Part shown: piece after piece, positions 22,259 through 38,570 of the stretch
Position numbering within the stretch: position 1 is the stretch's first letter
Layout: the number at the start of each line of letters is the position of its first letter
From: an uncultured Microthrixaceae bacterium
GTDB lineage: Bacteria > Actinomycetota > Acidimicrobiia > Acidimicrobiales > DATDAH01
Assembly: GCA_964470715.1 (NCBI GenBank)
Contig: CAYYDZ010000002.1
Coordinates: 591-64,590 of the forward strand
DNA: 64,000 nt
Reading direction: 5' to 3'
Translations under genes and position numbers: made by a program
Notes under the pieces: model-generated
What the model was told of the DNA's origin: nothing
Database searches by the model: none
Seen by the model: only the letters and a program-made list of their open reading frames with translations

Positions 22259-23083
22259 ATGACCACCGTCGGATCCACAGGTGCCGTCGAGCCCGACCCG
22301 TTCACGCCGCCGGAGCCCGCCGAGGCGCTGGCTCGCCTCGGGATGCCCCTCGACGAGGCGATGCGCACGCAACGGGCGGTGCGCCGCCTGCACCTGGCCC
22401 CGGTGTCGCACGACGTGCTTCTGCCACTGCTCGAGCTGTCGCTCAAGGCGCCCACCAGCTCGAACACCCAGGACTGGTCGTACCTCGTCGTGGAGGACCC
22501 GGACCAGAAGGCCCGCCTCGCTCGGCTGTACCGCCGGCTGTACCGGCTGTTCAACCCGGTCGTCGAGCGCCAGGCCCGTGGGGACGAGGCGGCGCTGCGG
22601 GGCATGCGCCCAGGGCAGTGGCAGGCCGAGCACTTCGAGGAGCTCCCGGTGTTCGTGATCCCGTGCTACGCCCGGAACCTCAAGCACCGACCGGTGGGTC
22701 GCCCGCAGATCTCGGTGGCGTCGTTCTACGGCTCGGTCTACCCCGCCGTGCAGAACCTCCTCCTGGCGTGCCGGGCCGTCGGCCTGGGTGCATCCCTGCA
22801 GACCCTGCCCATCTGGCACGTGCGTTCGGCGCGCAAGATCCTCGGCCTTCCCCGCACCATGAACCCGGTCTGCATCATCCCCATCGGCTGGGCCAAGGGT
22901 CGCTACGGCACCACCACGCGCCGTCCCATCGGGGAGGTCGTGCACCTCGACCGCTACGGCAACCAGCCGTTCCTGTCCGTCGCGGGGACCAACCTGACGA
23001 AGGGCGGCGGGGCGTTGAACGGGTTCGCGTCCGGCGGCGCCGGCGGCACCAAGCGCGGCCGGTCGCTGCCGAAGGGCGACTAG
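22259..23083 (+). CDS. Nitroreductase-family protein
   Basis: Part of ORF 22208..23083, starting at the ATG at 22259. MRTQRAVRRLHLAPVSHDVLLPLLELSLKAPTSSNTQDWSYLVV is the typical nitroreductase N-terminal signature. Confidence 0.8.
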   Translation: MTTVGSTGAVEPDPFTPPEPAEALARLGMPLDEAMRTQRAVRRLHLAPVSHDVLLPLLELSLKAPTSSNTQDWSYLVVEDPDQKARLARLYRRLYRLFNPVVERQARGDEAALRGMRPGQWQAEHFEELPVFVIPCYARNLKHRPVGRPQISVASFYGSVYPAVQNLLLACRAVGLGASLQTLPIWHVRSARKILGLPRTMNPVCIIPIGWAKGRYGTTTRRPIGEVVHLDRYGNQPFLSVAGTNLTKGGGALNGFASGGAGGTKRGRSLPKGD

Positions 23084-24102
23084 ACCAACCGCACCTCGGC
23101 GACGGCGGCGGCGAACGCCTCGTCGTGCACGGGGTCCGCCGGCACCTGGAGGAGCACGCCGTCGACGAGGTCGCCGTAGCGTTCGCCGAGGGCCGACGCC
23201 AGCTGGTCGTAGCGGGCGGAGACGACCACGGTGTCGAGCACGTCATCGGTGACCTGGGCGCCCAGCTCGTCCCATCGACCCGCCCGGGTGAGGGAGCGCA
23301 GGTGGTCGCCCAGCTCGGCCCAGCCGTGGAGCTCGAGGGTGCGGCGGTAGGCCGGGGTGCTGAAGAGGAACCCGAGCCGACGCCGGCGCTCCTCGCGCGC
23401 CTCGGTGACCGCTCCGTCCTCAGGCCCGGTGGCGACCATGGCGCCGGCCACGATCATGGGCGCCCCCTCCGAGCGGCCCGCCCGCCGGCGGCCTTCCTCG
23501 AGGGCGGGCAGGCAGGCCTCTTGGAGGAACCGGCGGTCGGAGTTGGTCGGGTGGGTCACGAACCCGTCGGCGACCTCACCGCCGAGACGGCAGGAGCGCC
23601 GGTTGATGCCGCCGAGCCAGATCGGCGGCGCGGGCCCGTCGAGGGGCCCGGGGTTGAACTCCGGCTGGAGCCGGGTCAGCCGGTAGTGGGGGCCGACGTG
23701 GTGCAGCGGCGCCGTGCCGGCGAAGGCGGCGAAGCAGGCCTGCACTGCGGCGACGTAGTCGGCCATGCGATCGATCGGGTCGGTCCAGGGCACCCCGAAG
23801 CGATCCTCGATGTTGGCCTTGATCTGAGTGCCGAGTCCGAGCTCGAAGCGGCCCGGCGCCAGCCTCGCCAACGACCAGGCGGTGAGCGCGCCCTGCATCG
23901 GGCTGCGCACGAAGGCCAGCGCGAGTGAGGTGCGTACGACGAGGTGATCGGTGTGTTCGAGCGCGAGGGCGCTGACGACGAAGCCGTCGTTGACCATCTC
24001 GGCCACGTGCAGTGCGTCGAACCCGAGGGCCTCGACACGTCGAGCGTGGTGGCCCACTGCGGAGAGCGGGAGGTGGGGATCCATGCCGGCGGCGACGTGC
24101 AC
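23080..24102 (-). CDS. Luciferase-like monooxygenase (LLM) class, probable F420-dependent oxidoreductase
   Basis: Part of ORF 23080..24168. Motifs: EALGFDALHVAEMVNDGF, FELGLGTQIKANIEDRFG, PIWLGGINRRSCRLGGEVADGFVTHP. The GTG at 24102 (VHVAAGMDPHL) fits the usual family N-terminus, but the start is uncertain. Confidence 0.75.
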   Translation of the reverse strand: MHVAAGMDPHLPLSAVGHHARRVEALGFDALHVAEMVNDGFVVSALALEHTDHLVVRTSLALAFVRSPMQGALTAWSLARLAPGRFELGLGTQIKANIEDRFGVPWTDPIDRMADYVAAVQACFAAFAGTAPLHHVGPHYRLTRLQPEFNPGPLDGPAPPIWLGGINRRSCRLGGEVADGFVTHPTNSDRRFLQEACLPALEEGRRRAGRSEGAPMIVAGAMVATGPEDGAVTEAREERRRRLGFLFSTPAYRRTLELHGWAELGDHLRSLTRAGRWDELGAQVTDDVLDTVVVSARYDQLASALGERYGDLVDGVLLQVPADPVHDEAFAAAVAEVRLV

Positions 24103-24225
24103 GGCCAGATCTTGGCCGACCGGGCCTACTCCAGGGGCGGCGGGTCGACCGGGCCGACCGGGGCCCATGTGCGCGCCCCGGCCCGAGTAGCGTCATCGTG
24201 ACCACTTGACCGACGAGGGGGCACC

Positions 24226-24642
24226 ATGCGCCGACCGCCGATCGACGAACGTCTCAAAGCCATTCCTCTGTTCCAGCGCCTGACCGACCGGCAACTCGCG
24301 TGCGTCGGTACCCTCGCGACGTTGCTCGACATCGGCGCCGGGCGAGAGCTCATCCGCGAGGGGCAGGTCGGACGCGAGTTCTTCCTCGTGGTCGAAGGTG
24401 AGGCCGAGGTCACCCGAGAGGGCGAACATCTCGCCACCCTGGGGCCGGGCACGTTCTTCGGCGAGACGGCGCTGCTGCTCGATCAGCCCCGGAACGCCAC
24501 GGTCGCAGCCAAGACCGACATGGTGGTCGAGGTCATCGAGCGTCGGGACTTCAAGGGTCTGCTCGAGGAGTACCCGGACCTCTATGCCCCCTTGCTCGCC
24601 GCAACCGCGCAGCAGCTCGGCGACGAGCCGGGAATCACCTGA
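24226..24642 (+). CDS. Stand-alone cyclic-nucleotide-binding (CAP effector) domain protein, no DNA-binding domain
   Basis: ORF 24226..24642 (138 aa). Motifs: IPLFQRLTDRQL, GREFFLVVEGEAEV, FFGETALLLDQPRNATVAA. Confidence 0.8.
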   Translation: MRRPPIDERLKAIPLFQRLTDRQLACVGTLATLLDIGAGRELIREGQVGREFFLVVEGEAEVTREGEHLATLGPGTFFGETALLLDQPRNATVAAKTDMVVEVIERRDFKGLLEEYPDLYAPLLAATAQQLGDEPGIT

Positions 24643-24646
24643 TCGG

Positions 24647-25555
24647 TCAGACGACGCCGAGCGCCGGATCACCCTCGGGGATGGGCGTCACGTCCACCGA
24701 GACGGCGAGCTCGTGTGACTCGCTCTCGGTGAAGATCACCCCCTTCAGCGGAGGAACGTCGCTGTAGTCGCGACCCCAGGCCACGGTGACGTAGCGGTCG
24801 TCGACGAACTGGTCGTTGGTGGGGTCGAGGTCGATCCAGCCAGGGCCGGGCACGAACACACCCACCCACGCGTGTGAGACGTCGGCGCCCTGGAGCCGCT
24901 CCATGCCCTGAGGGGGCTCGGTCTCGAGGTAGCCGCTGACGTAGCGGGCGGAGAGGCCGAGCGCACGCAGACCCGTGATGGTGAGGTGGGCGAAGTCCTG
25001 GCAGACGCCGGCGCCGCGGGTGAGCAGCTCATCGACCGTGGTGTCGACGTCGGTGGACCCCGGCTGGTACTCGAAGTCGGCGCCGATGCGAGCGGTGAGA
25101 TCGGCCAGAGCCTCGAGGAGGGGCCGGCCAGGAGAGAAGGACTCGGCCACGTAGTCGGCCGCCCGGGGGGAAGGGCCGGCCGCTGGGGAGGGCAAGGTGA
25201 ACTGCCGGGCGTCGAGCACCTCGGGGTCGGTGGAGGTCCGCAGGTCGGCGCGGACGGTCTCCCACAGGTGGCCACCGGCCGACGGCAGGAGCATCTGACG
25301 GCCCCTCACGTCGACCACGCTGGTGGCGGTCACCACGAGCGCCGTGTGCGGTTCGAGCACGGCGTAGTGGGCGACCCGGTTGCCGAAGAAGTCCTTCCGG
25401 ACCCGGTACTCCTCGGGGAAGGGGTCCACGGACAACGTGGTCGAGTAGCACCGCTGACCGGTCAGCTCGCGCGGGTGCAGGCGCGCCTCTCCGTAGGTCG
25501 AGAAGACCTCGCGGTCATAGCGGTACTCCGTGCGGTGCACGACCTTGAAGGTCAC
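24647..25555 (-). CDS. Transglutaminase-like cysteine protease-fold protein (Bact_transglu_N plus transglutaminase core)
   Basis: C-terminal 302 codons of ORF 24647..27397. I place the start at the GTG at 25555..25553, overlapping the upstream TGA (GTGA). VTFKVVHRTEYRYDREV is the typical N-terminus. The catalytic-type core is GAGVCQDFAHL ... SHAWVGVF ... WIDLDPTN (Cys-His-Asp). Confidence 0.8.
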   Translation of the reverse strand: MTFKVVHRTEYRYDREVFSTYGEARLHPRELTGQRCYSTTLSVDPFPEEYRVRKDFFGNRVAHYAVLEPHTALVVTATSVVDVRGRQMLLPSAGGHLWETVRADLRTSTDPEVLDARQFTLPSPAAGPSPRAADYVAESFSPGRPLLEALADLTARIGADFEYQPGSTDVDTTVDELLTRGAGVCQDFAHLTITGLRALGLSARYVSGYLETEPPQGMERLQGADVSHAWVGVFVPGPGWIDLDPTNDQFVDDRYVTVAWGRDYSDVPPLKGVIFTESESHELAVSVDVTPIPEGDPALGVV

Positions 25556-28104
25556 ATCACGCGGGGGTTGTTGGGGGTGAACACGGTGCGCTGGGGCATC
25601 TGGTGGCTGAAGTGCTCCGCGTCGAGGGCATCCGCAGCCCGTATCAACAGCTCGTCGAGGCGTCCGAGGAAGGCGTTCAGCGCGGGCCGCCCACCGTCGG
25701 CGTGGATGGCGCCCAACTCGAAGGTGTCGGCGCGCCGCACCAGGTCGGCGGCCTCCTCTGCGAGCGCCTCGGCGGGGGAGTCGGCGCCCCCGAGGCGGCG
25801 AGGCAGGCCGACCGTGGCCTCGTGCAGCGCGGCCGTCTGGTGGGCCAGCGATCGGGGGTTGTCGAGGTCGAGCACGAGGAGGTCGAGCACGGTGTCGACC
25901 TGCGCACGGGACCGGTACCGGCGCCGGTAGGTGATGATGCTCTCGGCGGCGATGAGGGTGGACTCGAGTACGAGGCTGTCGGTGGCCGTCCCCGTGGCCT
26001 CGGTGACGGTCGCTCGGAGCAGGGCGCTCAGCAGCAGCGATCGCTCGATGCGTCGTCCGGCCTCCAGGAAGCGCCACCCGGCGTCGCGCACCGTGTTCTC
26101 GGCAGCGAGGCCCGAGAGCGCGAGGAGCGCCTGGAGCACCCGGCCGAGCGCCGTCGGATCGGGTCCGCTCGATGACCGCAGTCGCAGGTCGTCCAGGTCG
26201 CGGTCGAGGTGGCCCACCACCAGCCACGTGTCGCTGCTCAGCAGGTCGCGCACCTCGGCGGTGGCATCGAGCATGTGGCGCACGTCGAACGCCAGCGAAC
26301 CGGCTCGGTCCTCGTCGACCAGCACCGAGCGGAGTTCGGCGTCCGGCCAGGCAAGGGCATCGTCGGCGTGCTCGCCCACGAACCCCGGCCACGTGCCGGA
26401 GACCGCCGTGAGGGCTCGCAACAGGATGCGCACGCTGGTGACGCCCTCGGGTGTGGCCCCGGCGGCGAACTCGTTGCGCCGATCGGCGATGACGCGCAGC
26501 AGCCGTGCCAGCATCTCGGCACGCTCGGCGTAGCGGCTCATCCAGAACAGGTGCTCCGCCGCCCGGGGCGAGGTCGGCGGCCGCGGCGCGGGTTCGGCGT
26601 CGTCGTCCTCGGCGGTGGGTTGCAGCCAGAACCCGGTGAGTCGCTCCGGCTCGGCGGCGAGAACGCACGTGTCCTTGCTGAGGGCGCCGGTCTGGTTGGT
26701 GATGAGGTCGCCGTCGGCGTCGGGGGCCACCCGGCTGAGTCCCCCGGGCATCACCGCGTACTGGTCGCCCCGTGCCACCGCGAAGGTGCGCAGGATGGTG
26801 CGGCGCGGGGCGAGGCCGCCATCGGCCACGGTGGGTGTGGTGCCGATGCTCACGGGGCGCTGGCCGACCCAGGCGTGGGGTTGGGCTTCGAGGCGTCGTG
26901 CCAGTTCGTCCCGCTCGGCGGCGCTCAGGCGCCAACCCATCGAAGGGACCATCATGCTCTCCCGGGCGATCGGCTTGATCACCAATTCGTGCAGGTGCGC
27001 GAGCACGTGGGCCCGGGCGGTGGGGTCGCCGCACCACCAGGTGTCGGCCGAGGGAAGTGCCAGTGGCTCGTCGAGGAGCGCCTCGGCCAGCGAGGGCAGG
27101 AACGGGAGCAGGCCCGGGTTCTCGAGGACCCCGCTGCCCAGGGTGTTCACCACCGAGACCGTGCCCGTCCGGCAGGCCTCGAGCAGGCCTGGGACGCCGA
27201 GGTTGGAGTCGGGGCGGAGCTCGACCGGGTCGCAGAACGCCGCGTCGACGCGACGGACGATGACGTGGACCGGCTCGAGCCGCCCGATCGAGCGCATCCA
27301 CACCCTGCCGTCGCGGACGCGAAGGTCGGCGCCTTGGACGAGGGGCACGCCGAGCTGCGCGGCGAGGTAGCCGTGTTCGAAGGCGGTCTCGCTCCACTGC
27401 CCAGGGGTGAGCACGACGATGCGCGGCGTGTCGTCCGTGGGTGGCGCGATCTGGTGCAGCGAGGAGCGCAGGGACCGGAAGAAGGGGGCCAAGCGCTGCA
27501 CCTGGGCCGATCGGTGCAGGCCCGGCAGCACCCGCGAGATCACGACCCGGTTCTCCAGCGCGTACCCGACGCCGGAGGGGGCCTGGGTGCGGTCCGAGAG
27601 CACCACGTGGCGACCGTCGGCGTCGCGGGCCAGATCAGCGGCGGCCAGGAAGAGCTGGTGGGGGCCGGGGAGGCGGATCTGGTCACACGTGCGGAGGAAG
27701 CCGGGGTGCCCGTAGACGACCTCGGGCGGCAGGAGGCCCTCATCGATCAGGCGGCGCTCGCCGTAGAGGTCGTGAAGCACGCGGTCGAGGAGCAGGGCCC
27801 GTTGCGCCACCCCGCTCTCGAGGGTCGCCCACTCCTCGGCGCCCACCATGAGGGGGACGGGGTCCGTGACCCAGGGTCGCGGCCCGACGGCATCGCCGGC
27901 GGTGACGTGGTAGGTGACGCCGTCCTCGGCCAGCAGTCGGGCCGCCTCGGCGGCGCGCAGTGCGAGCTCGCCGTGGTCGCTCAGTGTGGTGGCGACGGTG
28001 GCCCAGTGGTCGCGAACGGAGCCGTCGGGTGCGACCATCTCGTCGACGGCGCCCTCGACCGAGGGATAGGGGGCCAGCAGGGGTGGCCCCGGGACGACGC
28101 TCAC
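25552..28104 (-). CDS. Fusion protein: circularly permuted type-2 ATP-grasp domain plus alpha-E domain
   Basis: Part of ORF 25552..28278. The N-terminal ~480 aa are paralogous to the ATP-grasp at 29209..30645 (LSDRTQAPSGVGYALENR, VVLTPGQWSETAFEHGYLA, VRRVDAAFCDP, SVVNTLGSGVLENPGLL, GGLSRV). The C-terminal part is alpha-E-like (AAEHLFWMSRYAERAE). The start is probably the GTG at 28104. Confidence 0.75.
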   Translation of the reverse strand: MSVVPGPPLLAPYPSVEGAVDEMVAPDGSVRDHWATVATTLSDHGELALRAAEAARLLAEDGVTYHVTAGDAVGPRPWVTDPVPLMVGAEEWATLESGVAQRALLLDRVLHDLYGERRLIDEGLLPPEVVYGHPGFLRTCDQIRLPGPHQLFLAAADLARDADGRHVVLSDRTQAPSGVGYALENRVVISRVLPGLHRSAQVQRLAPFFRSLRSSLHQIAPPTDDTPRIVVLTPGQWSETAFEHGYLAAQLGVPLVQGADLRVRDGRVWMRSIGRLEPVHVIVRRVDAAFCDPVELRPDSNLGVPGLLEACRTGTVSVVNTLGSGVLENPGLLPFLPSLAEALLDEPLALPSADTWWCGDPTARAHVLAHLHELVIKPIARESMMVPSMGWRLSAAERDELARRLEAQPHAWVGQRPVSIGTTPTVADGGLAPRRTILRTFAVARGDQYAVMPGGLSRVAPDADGDLITNQTGALSKDTCVLAAEPERLTGFWLQPTAEDDDAEPAPRPPTSPRAAEHLFWMSRYAERAEMLARLLRVIADRRNEFAAGATPEGVTSVRILLRALTAVSGTWPGFVGEHADDALAWPDAELRSVLVDEDRAGSLAFDVRHMLDATAEVRDLLSSDTWLVVGHLDRDLDDLRLRSSSGPDPTALGRVLQALLALSGLAAENTVRDAGWRFLEAGRRIERSLLLSALLRATVTEATGTATDSLVLESTLIAAESIITYRRRYRSRAQVDTVLDLLVLDLDNPRSLAHQTAALHEATVGLPRRLGGADSPAEALAEEAADLVRRADTFELGAIHADGGRPALNAFLGRLDELLIRAADALDAEHFSHQMPQRTVFTPNNPRVM

Positions 28105-28123
28105 GCCGACGAGTCTGGCGTGA

Positions 28124-29212
28124 TCATCCTGCCCCGGTGAGCGATGGTGCAGGGAGGAAGTAGGTGGCGCCCAGGGCGTCGTGCAGCTCGCCCAGACTCC
28201 GTTGGAGCTCGTCCACCATCTCCAGCAGTTCGTCGGCGCCCCCAGAGATCGGGTCGAACTCGCCGAGGCGGCGGGCAACCGCTGCGCACTCCGCCATGGG
28301 CACCTCCTGGCGGGGGAGCTCGAGCAGCCAACGCGACACGGCGATGAGGCAGTGCTCTACGGACCGGGGGAACGCCGGCTCGAAGAGCAGGAAGCGCACC
28401 GCGTCGGCGCCGTGCACGACGCCGCCGGTGGCGCGTCGGTACATCTGCTCGGCACCGAGCGAGCGCAGCGCCGCCAGCCACGTGACATCGACGAAGGGCC
28501 GCAGGCCTTGGTCGGACACGCCCATGAGGATGTCGGCCTCGACCTCGAGGACGCGGGTGGTCATGTCGGCGCGCTCGACGAAGCGACCGATCTCGAGGAA
28601 CGAGTAGGTGTCGTCCCGGTTCATCGTGGCGTAGATGGAGCCGGCCACGAGGTGGCAGCGGCGGATCACCTCCTCGCACCATGCCAATCGTGTGGGACGG
28701 GCGATGGCGCTGCGCCGCGTGTCCCGGACCCAGAGGTGCAGCTCGTTCAAGGTCTCCCAGGTGCGACGGGGGACCATCGTGCGCGTCACCCGCAGGTCCT
28801 CGCGTGCCTGGTCCACCGAGCTGACCACCGACCCGGGGTTGAGGGGATCGGACAAGAGAAACGAGACCACCTCCTCTTCGGCCGGGTGGTCGTGGGCGAG
28901 GTGGTAGTCGGCGTCGCTGCCGGTGACGGCCAGCAGCGGGGCCCACGTCAGACCTGCGGACTTCGGCAGGTCCACGAACAGCTCGGTGTGGGTCTTGACC
29001 AGACGGGCCGTGGCCTCGGCGCGCTCGAGGTAGCGACCCACCCAGTAGGCGTTCTCGGCCACCCGGGACAACAACATGCTGGGTACCTCCTCCAGGTCCG
29101 GCGCCTCGGCCGGGTCGGCGGTGTCGGTGTCGGTGTCGGTGTCGGTATCTGTGGCGGTGGCGGGCTCGGCGCGTCGACGGTCGCCGCCCCCGTCCGGTGA
29201 GGGCGAGGTCAT
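28124..29212 (-). CDS. Alpha-E domain protein
   Basis: Part of ORF 28124..29641. The ATG at 29212 overlaps the upstream stop (ATGA) and adds a 45-aa acidic extension with a (TD)5 tract. The family-typical N-terminus MLLSRVAENAYWVGRYLERAE starts at the ATG at 29077, which has GGAGGAGG 8 nt upstream. Either start is possible. Confidence 0.75.
   Translation of the reverse strand: MTSPSPDGGGDRRRAEPATATDTDTDTDTDTADPAEAPDLEEVPSMLLSRVAENAYWVGRYLERAEATARLVKTHTELFVDLPKSAGLTWAPLLAVTGSDADYHLAHDHPAEEEVVSFLLSDPLNPGSVVSSVDQAREDLRVTRTMVPRRTWETLNELHLWVRDTRRSAIARPTRLAWCEEVIRRCHLVAGSIYATMNRDDTYSFLEIGRFVERADMTTRVLEVEADILMGVSDQGLRPFVDVTWLAALRSLGAEQMYRRATGGVVHGADAVRFLLFEPAFPRSVEHCLIAVSRWLLELPRQEVPMAECAAVARRLGEFDPISGGADELLEMVDELQRSLGELHDALGATYFLPAPSLTGAG
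29115..29150. repeat. Hexanucleotide tandem repeat (GTGTCG)x4 with degenerate flanking units
   Basis: Positions 29121..29144 are four perfect GTGTCG units, flanked by ggcggt and gtatct variants. On the minus strand they encode TDTDTDTDTD, in frame if the alpha-E gene starts at 29212. Confidence 0.85.
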
Positions 29213-30645
29213 CGTTCGCGCACCTCGATGCTCAGCCCGGACCTGGGTGGTCGCAGGACATCGGGGTCGATGATCCAAGTGTCCTTGCTGCCGCCGCCCT
29301 GGGAGCTGTTCACGATCAGCGAACCTTCCTGGCGGGCGACGCGGGTCAGCCCTCCGGTGGTGACGTAGGGGTGCTCCCCCGAGAGCACGAACGGCCGCAG
29401 GTCGACGTGGCGTGGGGCCACGACGCCGTCGCACAGCGTCGGCGCGGTGGAGAGCCGCAGGATGGGCTGAGCCACATAGTTGCGGGGGTCGGCCTCGACG
29501 CGGCGGCGGATCTCCTCCTTGTCGGCGGCGCTGGCGTGCGAACCGACGAAGATGCCGTAGCCCCCTGACTCGTTGGCCGGCTTCACGACGAGGTGGTCGA
29601 GGTTGGCCAGGACGTGCTTGCGCTGGCGGTCGTCCAGGCACACGAAGGTCTCGACGTTGGGGACGAGCGGTTCCTCGCCCAGGTAGTAGTGGATGAGGGC
29701 AGGGACGTAGGCGTAGAGGACCTTGTCGTCGGCCACTCCCGCACCGGGCGCGTTGGCGATGGCCACGTTGCCCTGGCGCCAGGCCGCCATGAGGCCAGCC
29801 ACGCCGAGGGCAGAGTCGGGGCGGAACACCTCGGGGTCGAGGAACAGGTCGTCGACCCGGCGGTACACGACATCGACGCGCACCAGGCCACCGACGGTGC
29901 GCAGGTAGACGACGTCGTCATCGACCACCAGGTCGCGCCCTTCGACGAGGTGGGCGCCCATCTGCTGGGCCAGGAACGCGTGCTCGAAGTACGCGGAATT
30001 GTGCACCCCGGGGGTCAGGACCACGATCACCGGCACCTCGCCGGGGCGGGGCGACAGGGAGCCGAGCAGTTCCCGTAGGCGGGTCGGGTACGCGTCGACG
30101 GGGTGGATGTCGAGGTCGCGGAAGAGATCGGCGAACACCCGTTTGGTTATCTGGCGGTTCTCGAGCATGTACGAGACGCCCGACGGCACTCGCAGGTTGT
30201 CCTCGAGCACGTACATGGTCCCGTCGCCGTCACGGACGAGGTCGCTTCCGGAGATGTGGGCCCAGGTGCCCTGCGGCGGACGTGCGCCGCGGCATTGGAG
30301 CCGCAGGTTGGCCGACTCGCCCACGACCTCAGCGGGCACGACGCCGTTGCGGATGGCCCGCCCTTCGCCGTAGATGTCGTCGATGAAGAGGTTCAGCGCG
30401 ACCATGCGTTGCGTGAGCCCCGCCGAGATCCGGCTCCACTCGTGGGTGGACAGCACCCGGGGGATGACGTCGAAGGGCCAGGCCCGGTCGATGTTGGTGC
30501 CTTCGGAGTACACGGTGAACGAGATGCCCATGGCCCGGATGGCCAGCTCGGCGGCGGCCTGGCGTTCCCGCAGGTCGGCGCCGAGCGAGTGGAGGAGGTC
30601 GACGACTCCCTCGCAGGCTGGTCGGGGCCCGTCGGTGGCGAACAT
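29209..30645 (-). CDS. Circularly permuted type-2 ATP-grasp protein
   Basis: ORF 29209..30645. Motifs: MGISFTVYSE, LEDNLRVPSGVSYMLENR, VVLTPGVHNSAYFEHAFLAQQMG, YRRVDDLFLDPE, NAPGAGVADDK, GGLTRV. A coding-like open frame continues ~31 codons upstream of the ATG with no ATG/GTG/TTG, so the true start may be further upstream (see findings). Confidence 0.8.
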   Translation of the reverse strand: MFATDGPRPACEGVVDLLHSLGADLRERQAAAELAIRAMGISFTVYSEGTNIDRAWPFDVIPRVLSTHEWSRISAGLTQRMVALNLFIDDIYGEGRAIRNGVVPAEVVGESANLRLQCRGARPPQGTWAHISGSDLVRDGDGTMYVLEDNLRVPSGVSYMLENRQITKRVFADLFRDLDIHPVDAYPTRLRELLGSLSPRPGEVPVIVVLTPGVHNSAYFEHAFLAQQMGAHLVEGRDLVVDDDVVYLRTVGGLVRVDVVYRRVDDLFLDPEVFRPDSALGVAGLMAAWRQGNVAIANAPGAGVADDKVLYAYVPALIHYYLGEEPLVPNVETFVCLDDRQRKHVLANLDHLVVKPANESGGYGIFVGSHASAADKEEIRRRVEADPRNYVAQPILRLSTAPTLCDGVVAPRHVDLRPFVLSGEHPYVTTGGLTRVARQEGSLIVNSSQGGGSKDTWIIDPDVLRPPRSGLSIEVRER

Positions 30646-30872
30646 CTCGTCCCACGCCGTGCCGGGGTCGTAGGCGCGCCAGGGGTCGTCCGCATCGTCG
30701 GGCGGGGTCGGCTTGGTGGCGGTGGGAGCGGCAGCGATGGGACGAGGGTGTCGCCCGAAGGTGACGGGGGTGTTTCGGGTCCGTGAAATGCCTTCCCCCG
30801 GGCCGGGTGACGCGTCCTCGCCTCGCTCGTGTCCCGGTGGTTACCGTGGCGGCGATCGAGCCGCGACGAACC

Positions 30873-30877
30873 AGGAG
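30873..30877 (+). promoter_or_regulatory. Shine-Dalgarno (AGGAG) for the 24-codon micro-ORF
   Basis: The sequence reads ccAGGAGcttgtgATG, with a 6-nt spacer to the ATG at 30884. Confidence 0.5.
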
Positions 30878-30883
30878 CTTGTG

Positions 30884-30958
30884 ATGCCCGTCGACACCTT
30901 CTTCGCCTTCTTCGCGGCCGACGCCGAGGCGATCGAGCAGGACGCGTCCGCGGCGTGA
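30884..30958 (+). CDS. Micro-ORF (24 aa: MPVDTFFAFFAADAEAIEQDASAA), translationally coupled to the amidase
   Basis: ATG at 30884 with AGGAG 6 nt upstream. All 23 sense codons after the ATG end in G or C. By contrast, 18 of the 57 upstream codons of the longer track ORF 30713..30958 end in A/T. The TGA at 30956..30958 overlaps the amidase GTG at 30955 (GTGA). Confidence 0.45.
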   Translation: MPVDTFFAFFAADAEAIEQDASAA

Positions 30959-32409
30959 CCACGACGGACGCCGGCGCGTCGGCGGGCATCCGCAGGTCGC
31001 ACGCCTACGGCGACGAGCTCGCCGGCTTCGACGGCGTCGCCACCGCCCAGGCCGTGCGGTCGGGTGCGTTGTCCGCGTCCGAGGTGGTGCGGGCCGCCAT
31101 CGCACGAGCGCGTGCCGTCGAGCCCGCCGTGCACGCGATGGTCGTCGACGACTTCGATCGGGCCCAGGCGGCCGGCGATGCGGGCCGGACGGGCGCGTTT
31201 GCCGGCGTCCCCACCGTCATCAAGGACATGACCGATGTGGCCGGACTGCCCACCCGAAACGGATCAGCCGCCTTCTCGAGGGCGGGACCGGCCGAGGAGA
31301 CCGGCGCCCTCGCTGCCCAGCTCTTCGACATGGGAATGGTCGGGCTGGGCAAGAGCACCATGCCCGAGTTCGGCTTCATCCCGTGCGCGGAGTTCCCCGA
31401 CCTGGAGGCCACGCGCAACCCCTGGAACCTGAACCGCTCCACCGGTGGCTCGTCCGGTGGCTCGGCTGCACTCGTCGCGGCGGGTGTGGTGCCCATCGCC
31501 CACGGCGCCGACGGGGGTGGGTCGATCCGCATCCCTGCGGCCTGCTGTGGCCTGGTCGGCCTCAAGGCCACCCGGGGGCGCTTGGCGAAGCCACCCGAGT
31601 CTCGCCTGATGCCTGTGGACGTCGAGGTCGAGGGAGTCCTGAGTCGCACGGTTCGGGACACGGCGCTGTTCTTCGCCGAGGCCGAGAGACGTCACCGCAG
31701 TCGCCGTCTCCCACCCGTCGGTCACGTCACGCGGCCGTTGGTGCGGCGGCTCCGCGTCGGCACGGTCCTCGAATCGCCCAACGGTGCCCTGGTCGACGCC
31801 CCGACGCGGGCGGCCTTCGAGCGAGCGGTGACACTGCTCGAGTCGTTGGGCCACGAGGTGCGGCCGGTCGACTTCCCCGCCGGTCGACAGTTCGCCGACG
31901 ACTTCATCCAGTACTGGTCGACGCTGGCCTACGCGGTGAGCGTGCAGGGCCACCGCCTGTTCGACCCGACCTTCGACCGTTCGCAGCTCACCCAGCTCAC
32001 GCGGGGCCTGGCCGAACGGTGCCGTCGCAACCTGGCGCGGACCCCTGGAGCGGTCTACCGGTTGCGGCGCTCCGCCGCGGACTACGCGAAGGCCATCGCC
32101 GGTGTCGACGTCGTCCTGTCGCCGGTGGTGAACACGATCGCTCCCGAGATCGGCCACTTGGCCATGGACCTGCCTTTCGACGAGGTGTTCCCCCGTGCGG
32201 AGGCCTGGGTCGGGTACACCCCGCTGGCCAACGCCACCGGCGCCCCGGCCATCAGCCTCCCGCTGCACCACGACGAGGCCAGCGGCCTGCCCGTGGGGAT
32301 GATGTTCAGCGCCGCCCATGGCCAGGACGCCCTGTTGTTGGGTCTGGCCTTGGCCCTCGAGGAGGCCGCGCCCTGGCCGACCCTTGGCGGGTCCCTCGCG
32401 CCGAGGTGA
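30955..32409 (+). CDS. Amidase-signature (GatA-like) amidase
   Basis: Part of ORF 30829..32409. The GTG at 30955 is the only canonical start just upstream of the family-typical N-terminus (ATAQAVRSGALSASEVVRAAIARA). The amidase signature is GGSSGGSAALVAAGVVPIAHGADGGGSIRIPAACCGLVGLKATRGR. Confidence 0.85.
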   Translation: MTTTDAGASAGIRRSHAYGDELAGFDGVATAQAVRSGALSASEVVRAAIARARAVEPAVHAMVVDDFDRAQAAGDAGRTGAFAGVPTVIKDMTDVAGLPTRNGSAAFSRAGPAEETGALAAQLFDMGMVGLGKSTMPEFGFIPCAEFPDLEATRNPWNLNRSTGGSSGGSAALVAAGVVPIAHGADGGGSIRIPAACCGLVGLKATRGRLAKPPESRLMPVDVEVEGVLSRTVRDTALFFAEAERRHRSRRLPPVGHVTRPLVRRLRVGTVLESPNGALVDAPTRAAFERAVTLLESLGHEVRPVDFPAGRQFADDFIQYWSTLAYAVSVQGHRLFDPTFDRSQLTQLTRGLAERCRRNLARTPGAVYRLRRSAADYAKAIAGVDVVLSPVVNTIAPEIGHLAMDLPFDEVFPRAEAWVGYTPLANATGAPAISLPLHHDEASGLPVGMMFSAAHGQDALLLGLALALEEAAPWPTLGGSLAPR

Positions 32410-33583: not shown

Positions 33584-34603
33584 GTGGGACACTCCGACAT
33601 GGCCCGCCGCCTGCTCACGGTCCCGGCGCTGTTCTCGGCATGGGGGGCGAGTCTCGTCATCGCGCTTCCCGCTGCCATGGCGGCGGCGATCCTCGATGTG
33701 GTGCGCCGGTCCCGTGGTTGGCCCACCCCGCGACTCGTCGCGTTCGCGGTCGCGTACCTCACGTACGAGGTCCTCGGCGTGGCCGGCGCGACCTGGCTGT
33801 GGTGCACGCGGGCCGTTCGGCCGGAGCGCTGGGAAGAGCGCAACCGCCGCCTCCAGTTGTGGTGGACGGCGAGCCTCATCCGGGCCGCCCGACCGGTGCT
33901 GGGGCTGCGCCTCGAGGTCGAACACCACGGTGAGCCCTCAGCGGGGCCGCTCGTGGTCGCGAGCCGCCACGTGAGCATCGTCGACTCGCTCCTGCCCGCC
34001 CATGTCCTGGGGGTGCGAGGCGGAATGCGCCTCCGGTACGTCCTCACGAGCGGCCTGCGCCTCGACCCTTGCCTCGACATCGTGGGTCACCGGCTCCCCA
34101 ACCACTTCGTGGATCGGGGGACGGCCGACTCGGGCGCAGAGATCACCGCCCTCGAGCACCTGGCGGAGGACATGGTGCCGGGCGACGCCGTCGTGATCTT
34201 CCCGGAGGGCGGTCTCTTCTCGCCGGCACGCCGAGATCGGGCCGAGGCCCGCCTCGCTGAGCGTGGGTCTTCTCGCGTGGAGGTGGCCAGGGCGCTGCAG
34301 CGGCTCCTGCCTCCTCGCCCGGCCGGGACGCTCGCCCTCCTGCGGGCGGCACCCACGGCAGACGTCGTGGTCGTCGGCCACCGCGGTTTCGAGCCGCTGG
34401 CGTCGATCGTGGGCCTGTGGCGGGCACTGCCGCTCGCCGATCCGGTGCAGCTGCGGGTGGTTCACCATCCGCGTGCGTCTGTTCCTCTCGACGAGGTCTC
34501 CCAGGTGGCGTGGCTGGATGAGCAGTGGCTGGCGATGGACCGGTGGCTGTGCGCGGTGGCAGACGCCCGGGTTGCGTGCGCCGCCCAACCGACGGCGGCG
34601 TGA
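33584..34603 (+). CDS. Lysophospholipid / 1-acyl-glycerol-3-phosphate acyltransferase-family protein (PlsC-like)
   Basis: ORF 33584..34603. N-terminal TM segments, an HX4D acyltransferase motif (SRHVSIVDS) and VVIFPEGG. The start could be the GTG at 33584 or the ATG at 33599. Confidence 0.75.
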   Translation: MGHSDMARRLLTVPALFSAWGASLVIALPAAMAAAILDVVRRSRGWPTPRLVAFAVAYLTYEVLGVAGATWLWCTRAVRPERWEERNRRLQLWWTASLIRAARPVLGLRLEVEHHGEPSAGPLVVASRHVSIVDSLLPAHVLGVRGGMRLRYVLTSGLRLDPCLDIVGHRLPNHFVDRGTADSGAEITALEHLAEDMVPGDAVVIFPEGGLFSPARRDRAEARLAERGSSRVEVARALQRLLPPRPAGTLALLRAAPTADVVVVGHRGFEPLASIVGLWRALPLADPVQLRVVHHPRASVPLDEVSQVAWLDEQWLAMDRWLCAVADARVACAAQPTAA

Positions 34604-34653
34604 CGAGACCGCCCGCGGAGTACCGTCGCGATCGTTCCGGCACGGGAGGCGAC

Positions 34654-35082
34654 ATGAACGGACCGATCATCGTGGGTACCGACGGTTCGGCGCGGGCGCG
34701 CCAGGCGGTCGATGCGGCCATCGAGATGGCCGTCGCCTTCGGCGCCGACCTGGTGATCGTGGAGGCGTACCAGCCCACCACCCGGCTGCCGAAGGACCTG
34801 CCGGCCGAGCTCGCCGACGTCGTGACACCGATGAGCAGCATCGAGCACACGCTCGACGAAGCGCTGGCGAACGCTCAGGAGGCGGGCGCCCGGGCCACCG
34901 TCCGCTCCATCGCGGGGGACCCGGCCGACGTGTTGTTGGGTGTCGCCGAGGAGCTCGATGCGGCCGTCATCGTCGTGGGCAACAAGGGCATCGGATCACT
35001 CAAGCGCTTCGTGCTGGGCAACGTCCCGTCGAAGGTCGTGCACCACGCACCCTGCTCGATCTTCATCGTCCACACCACCTGA
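34654..35082 (+). CDS. Universal stress protein (UspA family)
   Basis: Part of ORF 34525..35082. The ATG at 34654 is preceded by GGGAGG. Motifs: MNGPIIVGTDGSARARQAVD..., VIVVGNKGIGSLKRFVLGNVPSKVVHHAPCSIFIV. Confidence 0.85.
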   Translation: MNGPIIVGTDGSARARQAVDAAIEMAVAFGADLVIVEAYQPTTRLPKDLPAELADVVTPMSSIEHTLDEALANAQEAGARATVRSIAGDPADVLLGVAEELDAAVIVVGNKGIGSLKRFVLGNVPSKVVHHAPCSIFIVHTT

Positions 35083-35131
35083 CGCCCCGCCACGGCCACC
35101 GGGTGGGGCGGGGCCGGCGCGCGACACTCGG

Positions 35132-36226
35132 GTGGTGGATCCCCCGGAGGACGAGGCTGCCGCGCTCGATCGCATCAACGCCTTCCGACGTCGGCGGCCG
35201 CGATTCGACGACGTGGTCATCACGTCCTCCCATGGTGCCGGAGGTCGGGCGTCCGCGGCGCTGATCGACGCGGTCTTCCTCGAGGCGTTGGGTCGAGGTG
35301 TCGACGGCGCAGACGTCGCACTCACCGACGCCGCGGTGATCGACCTGCCGCCGGGTGAGCGAGTTGCCTTCACCACCGACTCCTACGTGGTGACCCCGCG
35401 ACGCTTCCCCGGCGGCTCCATCGGTCACCTCGCGGTGCACGGGACGGTGAACGACCTGGCGATGGTCGGCGCCAGGCCTCTCGCGTTGTCGCTCGCCGTC
35501 GTACTCGAGGAGGGCTTCCCCGTCGATGAACTCCGCGCCATCGTGGCCGACATCGCCGGGGCTGCCGCCGAGGCCGGCGTGCGCGTCGTCACGGGCGACA
35601 CCAAGGTGGTGGAGCGCGGCGCGGCCGATGGCATCTGGCTCACGACCGCTGGCGTGGGCGCGGTCCCGGCCGGCCGCGAGGTCGGTGCCGGCCGGGTGCG
35701 GCCGGGTGACCGCCTCCTGTTGTCGGGCACGTTGGCGGACCACGGCATGGCAGTGATGTTGGCCCGTGGGGACCTGGCCCTCGACGCCGACATCGCCTCA
35801 GACACCGCCGCCGTGCACGGCGTCGCCGAGGCCTTGTGGACTGCTGCGCCCGGGTTGCGCTGGTTGCGCGATCCGACCCGTGGCGGCCTGGCCGCGCTGG
35901 CCAACGATCTCGCCGCCGACGCCGGCGTCGCCGTGGTGCTGGACGAGGGGGCGCTGCCGGTACGCCCTGCAGTGGCGGGCGCTTGTGATCTCCTCGGCAT
36001 CGACCCGCTCTACGTGGCCAACGAGGGCAAGCTCGTCGCCGTGGTCCCGCCGGACGAGGCGGAGGCTGCCCTGGCTGCGGTCCGGGCGCACCCGCTGGGG
36101 GGCGACGCCGCACTGGTGGGGGAGGTCCACGCCGAGCCCGCCGGCCTCGTGGTCCTGGCCACCACCTTCGGCAGCACCCGCATCGTCGATGTCCTCGTGG
36201 GCGATCCGCTCCCGAGGATCTGCTGA
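35132..36226 (+). CDS. hypE: Hydrogenase maturation protein HypE (carbamoyl dehydratase)
   Basis: Part of ORF 34940..36226. Motifs: SHGAGG, FTTDSYVV, GTVNDLAMVGARP, VTGDTKVV, and the diagnostic C-terminus DPLPRIC. The start is the GTG at 35132 or 35135. Confidence 0.9.
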   Translation: MVDPPEDEAAALDRINAFRRRRPRFDDVVITSSHGAGGRASAALIDAVFLEALGRGVDGADVALTDAAVIDLPPGERVAFTTDSYVVTPRRFPGGSIGHLAVHGTVNDLAMVGARPLALSLAVVLEEGFPVDELRAIVADIAGAAAEAGVRVVTGDTKVVERGAADGIWLTTAGVGAVPAGREVGAGRVRPGDRLLLSGTLADHGMAVMLARGDLALDADIASDTAAVHGVAEALWTAAPGLRWLRDPTRGGLAALANDLAADAGVAVVLDEGALPVRPAVAGACDLLGIDPLYVANEGKLVAVVPPDEAEAALAAVRAHPLGGDAALVGEVHAEPAGLVVLATTFGSTRIVDVLVGDPLPRIC

Positions 36227-36227
36227 C

Positions 36228-38570
36228 GTGCCGGCCGGCCCTGCGGAAGAGCGCCGCCAGATCCGGGTCGGCGGCATCGTCCAAGGGGTGGGCCTGCGGC
36301 CCTTCGTGCACCGCAAGGCCACCGCGCTCGGCCTGAGCGGCGCGGTCGCCAACGACGAGCACGGCGTCGTCATCGACGTGCAGGGATCGGTGCCGGCCCT
36401 CGACGAGTTGCAGCGTTGTCTCACCGTGGCGCCACCGCCCCGGGCCCGGGTCATCTCGGTGGTGGTGACCACGCTCGTCCCTCGGTCAGAGGTGGCCGGG
36501 TTCACCATCGAGGCATCCCGTGCCGGGTCGCCGGGGTCGGCACCGGTCCGGGTGGGAGCCGACCTCGGGGTCTGCGACCCGTGCCTGGTGGAGGTGTTCG
36601 ACCCGGCCGACCGCCGGTATCGCTACCCGTTCACCAACTGCACCAACTGCGGTCCGAGGTACTCGATCGTGCGCCGGGTCCCCTACGACCGGGCCCGCAC
36701 GACCATGGCGGGGTTCACGATGTGCTCCGCCTGCCAGCAGGAGTACGACGATCCCACGGACCGTCGCTTCCACGCGCAGCCCAACGCCTGCCCGGCCTGC
36801 GGCCCGACGCTCGCGTACGAGCGTCCCGGGGTGGGGGCACCGGCGCTCGGCGACGAGGCGTTGGTGCTCGCCGCCGCCGCGCTGCGGGGCGGCGGCATCG
36901 TCGCGGTCAAGGGCATCGGCGGCTACCACCTGGCCGTCCTCGCCGACGACGACGAGGCCGTGGCGACCCTCCGTCGGCGCAAGCACCGGGACGAAAAGCC
37001 CTTCGCGGTCCTGGTGCGCGACGAAGAGGAGGCCGGCGGGTTCGCCGAGGTCGACGAGGCGGCGGCCGACGCGCTGGCGTCGTGGCGCGCGCCGGTCGTG
37101 CTCTGCCCGCGTCGGCGCGAGGCGAAGGTGGCCGCGGCCGTGGCGCCTGACCTTCCCGAGTTGGGGCTCGTGCTGGCGTACACACCGCTGCACCACCTGC
37201 TGCTCGCCGAGGTGGGACGACCCCTGGTGCTGACCAGCGCCAACGTCACCGATGAACCCATCGCGCACCGCGACGACGACGCCCGTGCCCGCCTGGCGCC
37301 GCTGGCGGACGGTCTGCTCACCCACGACCGTGGCATCCACGTGGCCTGCGAGGACTCGGTGGTGCGCTCGACCGGTGGTGGCCTGCAGGTCCTCCGTCGC
37401 GGTCGGGGGTACGCCCCCGAGCCCCTGCGCCTGCCCCTCGCCGCCGACCCGCACCCGCCCGTCCTGGCCGTCGGCGCCGAGCTCAAGAGCACGATCTCGG
37501 TGGCGCGCCGGGGCGAGGTGGTCACCAGCCCCCACCTGGGGGACCTCGAGCACCCGGCGGCGTACACCGCTTTCGTGGCGACGGCGACCCACCTCTGCGA
37601 CCTGTTCGCGGTGCGGCCCGCCGTGCTGGTGCACGACGCCCATCCGGAGTACCTGAGCACGAAGTGGGCCCGCGACACCGAGCTGCCCACCCTGGCCGTC
37701 CAGCACCACCACGCCCACGTCGCGTCCTGCCTCGTGGACCACGGGCGCGCCGGGCCGGTCATCGGCCTGGCCTTCGACGGCCTCGGCTACGGGGACGATG
37801 GCACCTTGTGGGGCGGCGAGGTCCTCGTGGCCGATCTGGTCGACTCGCAGCGCCTCGCCCACCTGCGACCGGTGGTGCTGCCCGGCGGCGCGGCGGCCAT
37901 CCGCGAGCCGTGGCGCATGGCGGTGGCGTGGGCGGCGGCGGCCGTCGATGCCCCGACCGCCCGCGCCGTCGCCCAGGCGCTCGACCCCCGGGGTGCGTCC
38001 CTGCTCGGCCTCGTCGAGCGCGCCGATCCACCTGGCGGGCCCGTCACCACCAGCGTCGGCCGTCTTCTCGACGCCGTGGCCGCCCTCGTCGGCGGCCGGC
38101 GCGCGGTCACCTACGAGGGACAGGCCGCCGTCGAGCTCGAGGCGATGGCGCGCCGTGTCCCCCGGTCCGGCGCACCCCGGTACCCCGTGGTCGTCGACGA
38201 TCCGGGGGAGGGGCGACCCCTCGTGCTCGACCCGCGTCCGATGGTGGCCGAGGTGGTCGCCGCCCGTGCTGCAGGGGTGGACGCGGCCGTGATCGCCGCC
38301 GGCGTGCACGAGGGACTGGGGCGCGCCGCGGGCCGGCTCGCCGCCGACCTCGCGGCCCGCCATGGGGTATCGGCCGTCGCCCTGACCGGTGGGGTGTTCC
38401 AGAACGTCCGTCTCACCGAGGTCGTCGCCGACCAGGTCGCGGCCGCCGGCCTCGAGGTTCTGTGCCACCGGAGCATCCCCCCGAACGACGGCGGCATCAG
38501 CGTGGGGCAGGCGGCCGTCGCCGTGGCGCGCTCCGGGCCGCTACCGTCGGCCACGAGCGTCGCGAGGTGA
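36228..38570 (+). CDS. hypF: Carbamoyltransferase HypF
   Basis: Part of ORF 35766..38570, with the GTG at 36228 one nt after the hypE TGA. It has an acylphosphatase-like N-terminus (VQGVGLRPFV), two Zn-finger pairs (CDPCL...CTNCGPRYSI; CSACQQEY...CPACGP), and YrdC-like and Kae1-like domains. Confidence 0.9.
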   Translation: MPAGPAEERRQIRVGGIVQGVGLRPFVHRKATALGLSGAVANDEHGVVIDVQGSVPALDELQRCLTVAPPPRARVISVVVTTLVPRSEVAGFTIEASRAGSPGSAPVRVGADLGVCDPCLVEVFDPADRRYRYPFTNCTNCGPRYSIVRRVPYDRARTTMAGFTMCSACQQEYDDPTDRRFHAQPNACPACGPTLAYERPGVGAPALGDEALVLAAAALRGGGIVAVKGIGGYHLAVLADDDEAVATLRRRKHRDEKPFAVLVRDEEEAGGFAEVDEAAADALASWRAPVVLCPRRREAKVAAAVAPDLPELGLVLAYTPLHHLLLAEVGRPLVLTSANVTDEPIAHRDDDARARLAPLADGLLTHDRGIHVACEDSVVRSTGGGLQVLRRGRGYAPEPLRLPLAADPHPPVLAVGAELKSTISVARRGEVVTSPHLGDLEHPAAYTAFVATATHLCDLFAVRPAVLVHDAHPEYLSTKWARDTELPTLAVQHHHAHVASCLVDHGRAGPVIGLAFDGLGYGDDGTLWGGEVLVADLVDSQRLAHLRPVVLPGGAAAIREPWRMAVAWAAAAVDAPTARAVAQALDPRGASLLGLVERADPPGGPVTTSVGRLLDAVAALVGGRRAVTYEGQAAVELEAMARRVPRSGAPRYPVVVDDPGEGRPLVLDPRPMVAEVVAARAAGVDAAVIAAGVHEGLGRAAGRLAADLAARHGVSAVALTGGVFQNVRLTEVVADQVAAAGLEVLCHRSIPPNDGGISVGQAAVAVARSGPLPSATSVAR

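Follow-up and report, generated by a model that had tools for sequence, protein, structure and literature searches.

The 64,000-nucleotide stretch analysed here (the window; contig CAYYDZ010000002.1 of an uncultured Microthrixaceae bacterium) has a G+C content of 70-75%, and the closest genome matches are Microthrixaceae and Acidimicrobiales metagenome-assembled genomes (MAGs). Its minus strand carries, at 24647-30645, four consecutive co-directional open reading frames (ORFs), here called G1 to G4, that encode a split pair of circularly permuted (cp) ATP-grasp and Alpha-E proteins, a fusion of the same two modules and a transglutaminase-fold protein. An earlier note on this DNA had placed the genes at these positions and proposed that the two sets perform "two sequential or alternative ligation steps"; our analysis suggests instead that the split ATP-grasp is the ligase of the locus and that the fused copy is most simply a pseudo-ligase. 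The genes, the one spacer and the domains of the fusion are:

29209..30645, minus strand: G1, 478 aa, split ("type I") cp ATP-grasp protein (Pfam CP_ATPgrasp_2, 3e-160; CP_ATPgrasp_1, 2e-135)
28124..29212, minus strand: G2, 362 aa, split Alpha-E protein (Pfam Alpha-E, 3e-75)
28105..28123, minus strand: G2-G3 spacer, 19 nt, TCACGCCAGACTCGTCGGC
25552..28104, minus strand: G3, 850 aa, "type II" fusion of cp ATP-grasp and Alpha-E (Pfam CP_ATPgrasp_2, 1e-147; Alpha-E, 4e-63)
26725-27855, minus strand: ATP-grasp-like domain of G3 (Pfam), residues 84-460
25609-26568, minus strand: Alpha-E domain of G3 (Pfam), residues 513-832
24647..25555, minus strand: G4, 302 aa, transglutaminase-fold thiol enzyme (Pfam Bact_transglu_N, 3e-24; Transglut_core, 5e-19)

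Profile searches with Pfam upheld the domain assignments of the earlier note for all four translations, and ORF coordinates together with direct reading of the sequence confirmed the junctions it had described: G1 and G2 share an ATGA overlap (29209-29212), the 19-nt gap follows, and G3 and G4 share a GTGA overlap (25552-25555). From this coupling, G1 to G4 are predicted to form one operon. All four genes are under purifying selection when compared with the related loci L004 and L096, with ratios of nonsynonymous to synonymous substitution rates (dN/dS) of 0.19-0.32 overall, 0.19-0.21 for G1 and 0.28-0.32 for G3. NCBIfam holds no family model for any of the four proteins and none of them matched an anti-phage defence model of PADLOC, while an Rfam search of 24000-31500 gave no match, scans for sigma-70 promoters and intrinsic terminators found none, and no precursor-peptide gene lies within the cluster.

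In the following, type I denotes the split lineage and type II the fused lineage. Catalytic residues were compared in an alignment of 18 locus-derived type I sequences and 80 type II N-halves, with residue roles and their order (R/D...E-x-N...K...K...R) taken from trypanothione and glutathionylspermidine synthetases (PMC2427367). Three motifs are central to this comparison:

30190..30204, minus strand: E148-D-N150-L-R152 of G1, putative ATP-grasp Mg-binding E-x-N and catalytic Arg, with D135 13 residues upstream
29554..29583, minus strand: K355-PANES-GGYG364 of G1, putative ATP-binding Lys and Gly-rich loop, invariant in type I
27583..27597, minus strand: S170-D-R172-T-Q174 of G3, degenerate counterpart of the E-x-N-x-R motif

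The invariant set of the type I sequences comprises D135, V-L-E148-D-N150-L-R152-V-P-S-G, K308 (in GVADDK), K355...S-G-G-Y-G, Q393 and R417, and the EDNLR motif is present in 120 of 120 database type I sequences. G1 retains the full catalytic set of Mg-binding Asp, Glu-x-Asn, Arg, two phosphate-binding Lys and Gly-rich loop, in a layout close to that of LmTSA: Glu-x-Asn is common to both, the Glu follows the Asp at +13 in G1 and +14 in LmTSA, and the two Lys follow the Asp by 173 and 220 residues (183 and 218 in LmTSA). A weak Pfam match to ATPgrasp_YheCD spans G1 residues 338-367, where the Lys and the Gly loop lie. Identity of G1 to split orthologues is 50-65% in other phyla and 83% in its clade relative L004. 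Its closest solved structure and closest PDB match is 3n6x (1.4e-149), deposited as "putative glutathionylspermidine synthase", which is also the sole match of a profile search of the PDB with type I sequences. Foldseek with an AlphaFold2 (AF2) model of G1 again ranked 3n6x first (4e-39), then permuted eukaryotic glutathione synthetases and E. coli GspS (2io7) and, lower, GshB, RimK, PsnB and DdlB; this model is poor (predicted local distance difference test, pLDDT, 58), and the search is only supportive. The GSP_synth Pfam model did not match G1 even at E=10, and the likeness to 2io7 is one of fold only. With these residues, G1 is predicted to be an active carboxylate-amine ligase and the only canonical ligase in the window.

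The start of G1 is uncertain. Upstream of the annotated ATG lie 17 in-frame codons, DDPWRAYDPGTAWDE (30646-30696), with a G+C content at third codon positions (GC3) of 0.95; L004, L096, P0242 and P0243 keep the encoded amino acids while differing by synonymous changes at third positions, and the stretch is homologous to 3n6x residues 7-12. In P0243, which is 92% identical, the gene starts 22 codons upstream of the window's Met. The true start probably lies upstream of 30645. No ATG, GTG or TTG occurs in the G1 frame between the stop at 30841-30843 and the ATG at 30645, and a non-canonical start, a sequence error or a genuinely shortened N-terminus are all possible.

The fused gene G3, a single gene of about 850 aa as the earlier note had described it, is upheld by our analysis. 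We considered a frameshift artefact and ruled it out, given that three independent metagenome contigs encode an identical 850-aa product and that eight orthologues (from Actinomycetota, Gammaproteobacteria, Betaproteobacteria and Acidobacteriota) align with it end to end across the linker. Full-length fused representatives were found in 142 different clusters at 50% identity, and the family, which NCBI names "circularly permuted type 2 ATP-grasp protein", has thousands of members (at least 142 such clusters were examined). Both modules indeed occur twice at the locus, but the resulting double set did not arise by tandem duplication: identity is 36% between G1 and the N-half of G3 and about 26% between G2 and the C-half of G3, and a recent duplication was rejected on these low values. 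Compared with gammaproteobacterial counterparts, G1 is 61-64% identical to the split ATP-grasp and the G3 N-half 44% identical to the fused protein. The copies are thus closer to their cross-phylum orthologues than to each other, and the two sets are therefore best described as ancient paralogous lineages brought together, each orthologous to its own cross-phylum lineage.

The N-half of G3 still matches 3n6x (2.8e-75), but the residue set of a competent ATP-grasp ligase is not present in it. The ungapped pairwise alignment at the motif sets YVLEDNLRVPSG against VVLSDRTQAPSG; the G3 stretch reads V-L-S170-D-R172-T-Q174-A-P-S-G, P330 stands in place of K308, and the Gly loop is deleted. This is a property of the whole family. 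No E-x-N was found in any of 120 close fused database homologues, and among the 142 fused representatives the N150 column holds Arg in 125 and His in 7 and never Asn, the R152 column Gln in 124, the E148 column Ala, Ser, Gly or Asn, and the K308 column Pro in 109, with the GGYG loop deleted in about 136. The fusion would thus be a conserved but non-canonical ATP-grasp, most simply a pseudo-ligase, and this family-wide loss of residues in the fused copy is, set against the literature that could be searched, the new point of our analysis.

The proposal of two ligation steps has to be weighed against these columns. If both ATP-grasp copies were active, they would perform sequential or alternative ligations on one substrate, served by one transglutaminase-fold protein, and such an arrangement would fit the full length of both copies, their strong cp ATP-grasp Pfam matches, the purifying selection on both, the frequent co-occurrence of the two sets and the conserved polar residues that the fused family has of its own. 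The fused copy, however, lacks the Glu, the Asn, the Arg, one of the two phosphate-binding Lys and the Gly loop, and two ligation steps are therefore doubtful, the more so as these residues are absent from every fused homologue examined and as the fusion sits in most loci with a DUF2126 protein, a putative amidoligase that could supply the ligase activity. We consider two active copies unlikely.

G2 carries the ER motifs YWVGRYLERAE and GRFVERAD, with RYAERAE and GRRIERS at the corresponding Alpha-E half of G3. The AF2 model of G2 is all-alpha and confident (pLDDT 85; predicted template modelling score, pTM, 0.81); a fold search of the PDB with it gave nothing significant (best E 0.47), and G2 has no PDB sequence relative. 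The disordered N-terminal tail of G2 contains TDTDTDTDTD, encoded by a hexanucleotide repeat of 7.5 copies (29119-29163, minus strand) whose length varies among near-identical contigs, giving a protein of 362 aa here and of 354-356 aa elsewhere. In G4, the Cys-His-Asp triad is invariant in 82 orthologues:

25001-25003, minus strand: C185 of the G4 triad
24872-24874, minus strand: H228 of the G4 triad
24824-24826, minus strand: D244 of the G4 triad

The PDB matches of G4 are 3isr and 6g49. It shares 38-44% identity with the transglutaminases encoded after the fusion in other phyla, and its sequence places it in that lineage.

To see how the cluster is usually composed, we surveyed 9 genome loci, 80 metagenome loci and 6 loci obtained via exact-protein look-up, classified by tblastn with the window proteins, one DUF2126 protein and one Anbu-like protein as queries. 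This survey bore out that the trio of cp ATP-grasp, Alpha-E and transglutaminase is a widely conserved neighbourhood. Its canonical type II module consists of a protein of about 1100 aa with Bact_transglu_N, Transglut_core and DUF2126 (described in Pfam as "putative amidoligase"), followed by the fusion of about 850 aa and a transglutaminase of about 300 aa; the DUF2126 gene lies immediately 5' of the fusion in 55 of 67 loci and the transglutaminase immediately 3' of it in 75 of 79. A type I split pair occurs within 10 kb of the fusion in 20 of 89 loci, and in 10 of the 23 that have long flanks, usually just upstream of the DUF2126 gene. The adjacency of a split and a fused set is thus present in the window as the earlier note had pointed out, but it is not peculiar to it and recurs across phyla. 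Among the 45 loci with at least 3.5 kb of upstream sequence, DUF2126 alone is present in 24, both in 17, the split pair alone in 2 and neither in 2; the fusion therefore sits almost always beside a candidate true ligase.

The full five-gene order of cp ATP-grasp, Alpha-E, transglutaminase+DUF2126, fusion and transglutaminase is found in L095, L097 and L098, three Actinomycetota loci at 56-61% identity (L098 is a Pseudonocardia genome). At 70-75% identity, L004 and L096 show the same four-gene order as the window and no DUF2126 gene, and no DUF2126 remnant was found anywhere in the 64 kb. Since the DUF2126 gene of the relatives sits at the site between G2 and G3 and the window has none, the 19-nt gap is read as the scar of a clean loss of this gene in the present Acidimicrobiales clade. 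The locus is a reduced form of the five-gene cluster, of a kind (type I only, no DUF2126) that is rare in the survey (2 of 45 loci).

Several observations from the survey concern other members of the family. A protein of about 330-350 aa with a Zn-ribbon and a Peptidase_Mx domain (PF10005+PF15887) recurs beside the fused module, usually right after the small transglutaminase, among others in L008, L011, L029, L036, L038-L042, L044, L046, L090, L094, L095, L097 and L098; the survey counts Peptidase_Mx as a neighbour in about 13 loci. In a Solibacteraceae MAG (L010:26-5332), one open frame of 1768 aa covers the end of the DUF2126 gene together with the fused gene; it may be a triple fusion or else an artefact of assembly or frame. 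The gene calls of L093 and L094, two Nanopore-derived relatives, are fragmented, which we attribute to indel errors and not to biology.

A published hypothesis for Anbu operons holds that the system tags proteins for degradation (PMC6376114, PMC5666114). The ligase would add amino-acid or peptide tags that the transglutaminase-fold protein cross-links or removes, and the window would hold a peptidase-less derivative. Anbu adjoins split and fused sets in L005-7, L009, L037 and L080, which together with the adjoining Peptidase_Mx genes speaks for such a function. The window itself, though, contains no Anbu-like match and no Peptidase_Mx in its 64 kb and, as said, no DUF2126, no tag or target gene is linked to the cluster, and Anbu displayed neither peptidase activity nor interaction with the operon proteins in vitro (PMC6376114). 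We therefore regard a tagging or degradation function as improbable for this locus.

Control by nitrogen is suggested by an element that was exposed by aligning the region upstream of G1 with those of L004 and L096:

30750..30787, minus strand (the strand of G1): GlnR-box-like element TTCAC-n6-GAAAC-n6-GTCAC-n6-GCGAC in the divergent intergenic region upstream of G1

The GlnR box of actinomycetes has been given as gTnAc-n6-GaAAc-n6-GtnAC-n6-GAAAc, with the layout a-n6-b-n6-a-n6-b (PMC10704036), and the GlnR consensus of M. smegmatis as Gn2AC-n6-GnAACA (PMC3662644). Searching for GTNAC-N6-GAAAC-N6-GTNAC with at most one mismatch gave a single match in the 64 kb (30761-30787) where 0.01 would be expected, and the element is kept upstream of the G1 orthologue in L004, L096, L095 and L098. 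The shorter pattern [GT]TNA[CT]-N6-GNAAC occurs on the gene strand 81-182 nt upstream of the type I gene in five of six actinobacterial clusters, with a near match in the sixth, at a background of 0.018 per kb. Three lower-GC loci that are proteobacterial in appearance (L051, L070 and L080) have a perfect sigma-54 -24/-12 element, TGGCAC-N5-TTGC, 95-106 nt upstream of the type I gene. Published expression data point in the same direction: the homologous cluster of B. cenocepacia (I35_5080-83) shows NtrC/sigma-54-dependent induction of 6- to 9-fold (PMC5491218), and PP_2685 and PP_2688 of P. putida are induced on nitrate rather than ammonium (PMC8050072). We infer that the operon is under GlnR-type control by nitrogen limitation. 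The divergent region between G1 and a unit of micro-ORF and amidase measures 238 bp, and the element within it could serve both sides; it is retained in L096, although the amidase has decayed there.

An operon of cp ATP-grasp, Alpha-E and transglutaminase, with or without Anbu (COG2308-COG2307-COG1305), was reportedly described by Valas and Bourne in 2008 and by Iyer and colleagues in 2009. The window resembles it in that G1 and G2 are orthologous to the split pair, a Cys-His-Asp transglutaminase-fold protein is part of the operon, the translational coupling is the same and homologues are induced by nitrogen limitation. It differs in lacking the Anbu peptidase, a frequent though not obligatory fourth gene, and in that its sole transglutaminase comes from the lineage of the fused gene, with the fused paralogue inserted between Alpha-E and transglutaminase. 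With the type II module it shares the orthology of G3 and G4 to the second and third genes (36-61% and 38-44% identity across phyla) as well as their order and overlap, but the DUF2126 gene of about 1100 aa is missing both here and in the relatives at 70-75% identity. M. tuberculosis Rv2566-Rv2567 with Rv2569c is what we take to be an example of the type II module.

The type I ATP-grasp of a Yersinia Anbu operon releases phosphate from ATP, and Anbu itself had no peptidase activity and did not interact with operon proteins in vitro (PMC6376114). The Anbu papers leave the functional hypotheses for the system unconfirmed (PMC6376114, PMC5666114, PMC3235984), a paper on Rv2569c as a "serine protease" does not discuss transglutaminase fold or operon, and neither of two M. 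tuberculosis proteins that a 2026 preprint produced as candidate ATP-binding enzymes, Rv2411c and Rv2567, made gamma-aminobutyric acid (GABA)-trehalose. As the earlier note had held, no defined substrate or product was found for the system in the literature that could be searched.

A mechanistic parallel is offered by the glutathionylspermidine and trypanothione synthetase-amidases EcGspS and LmTSA. Like G1, these are permuted ATP-grasp C:N ligases with the order D...E-x-N...K...K...R, they are paired with a Cys-His amidase (papain-like in their case) that hydrolyses the bond made by the ligase, and the G1 model has EcGspS as a structural neighbour. Unlike them, G1 has no GSP_synth match, the hydrolase at the locus is a separate protein of transglutaminase fold and not a fused CHAP domain, and Alpha-E and pseudo-ligase have no counterpart there. 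A second likeness, in logic, would be to the cycle of tubulin tyrosine ligase and vasohibin, in which an ATP-grasp ligase attaches a residue to the carboxylate of a protein and a cysteine peptidase resembling transglutaminases takes it off again (for the vasohibin fold, PMC4866520). That cycle is eukaryotic, is not operonic and has no sequence relation to the present proteins, and it serves as an analogy only.

We favour, at a probability of roughly 0.5, a reading in which G1 to G4 provide one active ligase, its Alpha-E partner, a scaffold of pseudo-ligase and Alpha-E, and a thiol amidase or transamidase, all under control by nitrogen limitation. G1 would be an ATP-dependent carboxylate-amine ligase working via an acyl-phosphate intermediate, with the residue order of glutathionylspermidine synthetases, and G2 its non-catalytic partner. 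G3 would be a scaffold, substrate-presenting or regulatory subunit and not a second ligase, and G4 a thiol enzyme with a Cys-His-Asp triad, acting by hydrolysis or transamidation on the amide bond that G1 makes. Ligase and amidase would thus form a couple analogous to glutathionylspermidine/trypanothione synthetase-amidase in logic, not in family membership, and its expression would respond to nitrogen limitation via the GlnR-type box. The data show the gene content, the orthology, the conservation counts, the loss of residues, the purifying selection and the presence and conservation of the motifs. What we infer in this picture is the activity of one copy and inactivity of the other, the coupling of ligase and amidase, the GlnR control and the class of substrate. 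With no precursor-peptide gene in the cluster, the substrate would be a carboxylate of a cellular protein or peptide, or else a metabolite encoded elsewhere; the peptidases near relatives favour peptides, and the fold neighbours together with the missing precursor gene favour metabolites.

The latter possibility can be spelled out as a small-molecule pathway in which G1 makes an amide like glutathionylspermidine or a gamma-glutamyl-amine for the storage or scavenging of nitrogen, G4 acts as an amidase that frees the amine or ammonia, and Alpha-E and G3 tune the balance. Such a pathway would sit well with the annotation of 3n6x, with the glutathione and glutathionylspermidine synthetases among the fold neighbours, with the regulatory signals of nitrogen limitation and with an operon devoid of precursor peptides, and an ATP-grasp synthetase and a papain-like amidase acting on the same bond are a precedent for it (PMC2427367). 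It is at odds with the failure of GSP_synth to match even at E=10 and with the recurrent peptidase neighbours (Anbu, Peptidase_Mx), which suggest peptide or protein substrates; that Rv2411c and Rv2567 made no GABA-trehalose also speaks against it, while saying little about other metabolites. A small-molecule pathway appears to us a rather doubtful prospect.

Several points weigh against the reading that we favour, with G1 as ligase and G3 as pseudo-ligase. All activity assignments for the proteins of the locus derive from their sequences, and the mapping of E-x-N follows sequence pattern, residue spacing and literature rather than a superposition of structures at the level of residues. Invariant polar residues peculiar to the fused family (R172, Q174, E239, R264 and E328) stand beside the retained D157, K/R377, Q415, R439 and K477-D478, and the fused domain may have a non-canonical active site. 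The absence of DUF2126 is a statement about the 64-kb window and not about the whole genome. To our knowledge, GlnR is not known in Acidimicrobiia, and the cluster is not mentioned in the published GlnR regulons that we checked. Finally, pull-downs in Yersinia revealed no stable complex among the operon proteins (PMC6376114).

For the family as a whole we would extend the argument tentatively. The fused proteins may be conserved pseudo-ligases that traded their catalytic residues for the invariant R-T-Q and that present substrate to, or regulate, the split cp ATP-grasp or DUF2126, forming together with them a cycle of amide ligation and removal induced upon nitrogen starvation through GlnR in Actinomycetota and NtrC/sigma-54 in Proteobacteria. 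This is a possibility that we rate below even odds; if it held, the four-gene operon without DUF2126 would be the minimal natural version of the cycle and the simplest one to reconstitute.

Divergently from G1 lies a micro-ORF, MPVDTFFAFFAADAEAIEQDASAA, of 24 aa (30884-30958, plus strand; GC3 1.0) that overlaps the probable start of an amidase gene by GTGA and was found only in the near-identical relative L093. The amidase (30955-32409, plus strand) probably starts at GTG 30955, giving 484 aa as called in L093; a longer ORF from 30829 has a GC3 of just 0.4-0.6 in its first 40 codons and by appearance is a spurious extension. Among 89 surveyed loci, only 2 gave amidase matches, which lie far away from the cluster, and short amidase-like fragments upstream of the G1 orthologue in L096 (L096:5201-5394; 59% identity over 59 aa, plus 18 aa) look like the remains of a decayed copy of the window's intact amidase. 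Amidase and micro-ORF are not co-conserved with the system: they are syntenic in very close relatives only and decayed in the relative at 70% identity. We therefore do not count them as part of it, and rejected a functional link on the basis of the two matching loci and the L096 remnant.

On the other side, a stand-alone cyclic nucleotide monophosphate (cNMP)-binding protein of 138 aa (24226-24642, plus strand) is convergent with G4, with 4 nt between the stops, and is followed by a gene for a luciferase-like monooxygenase (23080-24168). The cNMP protein matches Pycsar/TIR effector models in PADLOC via its cNMP domain only. Both genes adjoin the operon in the four-gene relatives L004, L093 and L096 and not in L095, L097 and L098, and were rejected as parts of the system since their synteny is at the level of the clade. 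Genes for an acyltransferase and for the hydrogenase maturation proteins HypE and HypF lie at 33584-38570 (plus strand), at a distance of about 3-8 kb; in the syntenic L093, HypC and HypD come after them. No evident link of these genes to the operon was seen.

The system to which G1 to G4 belong has been recognised as an unknown since 2008-2009; thousands of bacteria have it, mycobacteria and pseudomonads among them, and its Anbu operons bear on the evolution of the proteasome. The locus does not solve this system, but our analysis narrows the problem: the split ATP-grasp would be the ligase to assay, the fusion its non-catalytic partner, and nitrogen limitation the condition under which the system should be studied. 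Should the prediction of a pseudo-ligase be wrong, the fused family would hold an ATP-grasp active site that does without the Glu supposed to be universal. For reconstitution, this Acidimicrobiales clade provides a minimal natural version of four genes that lacks DUF2126, Anbu and Peptidase_Mx.

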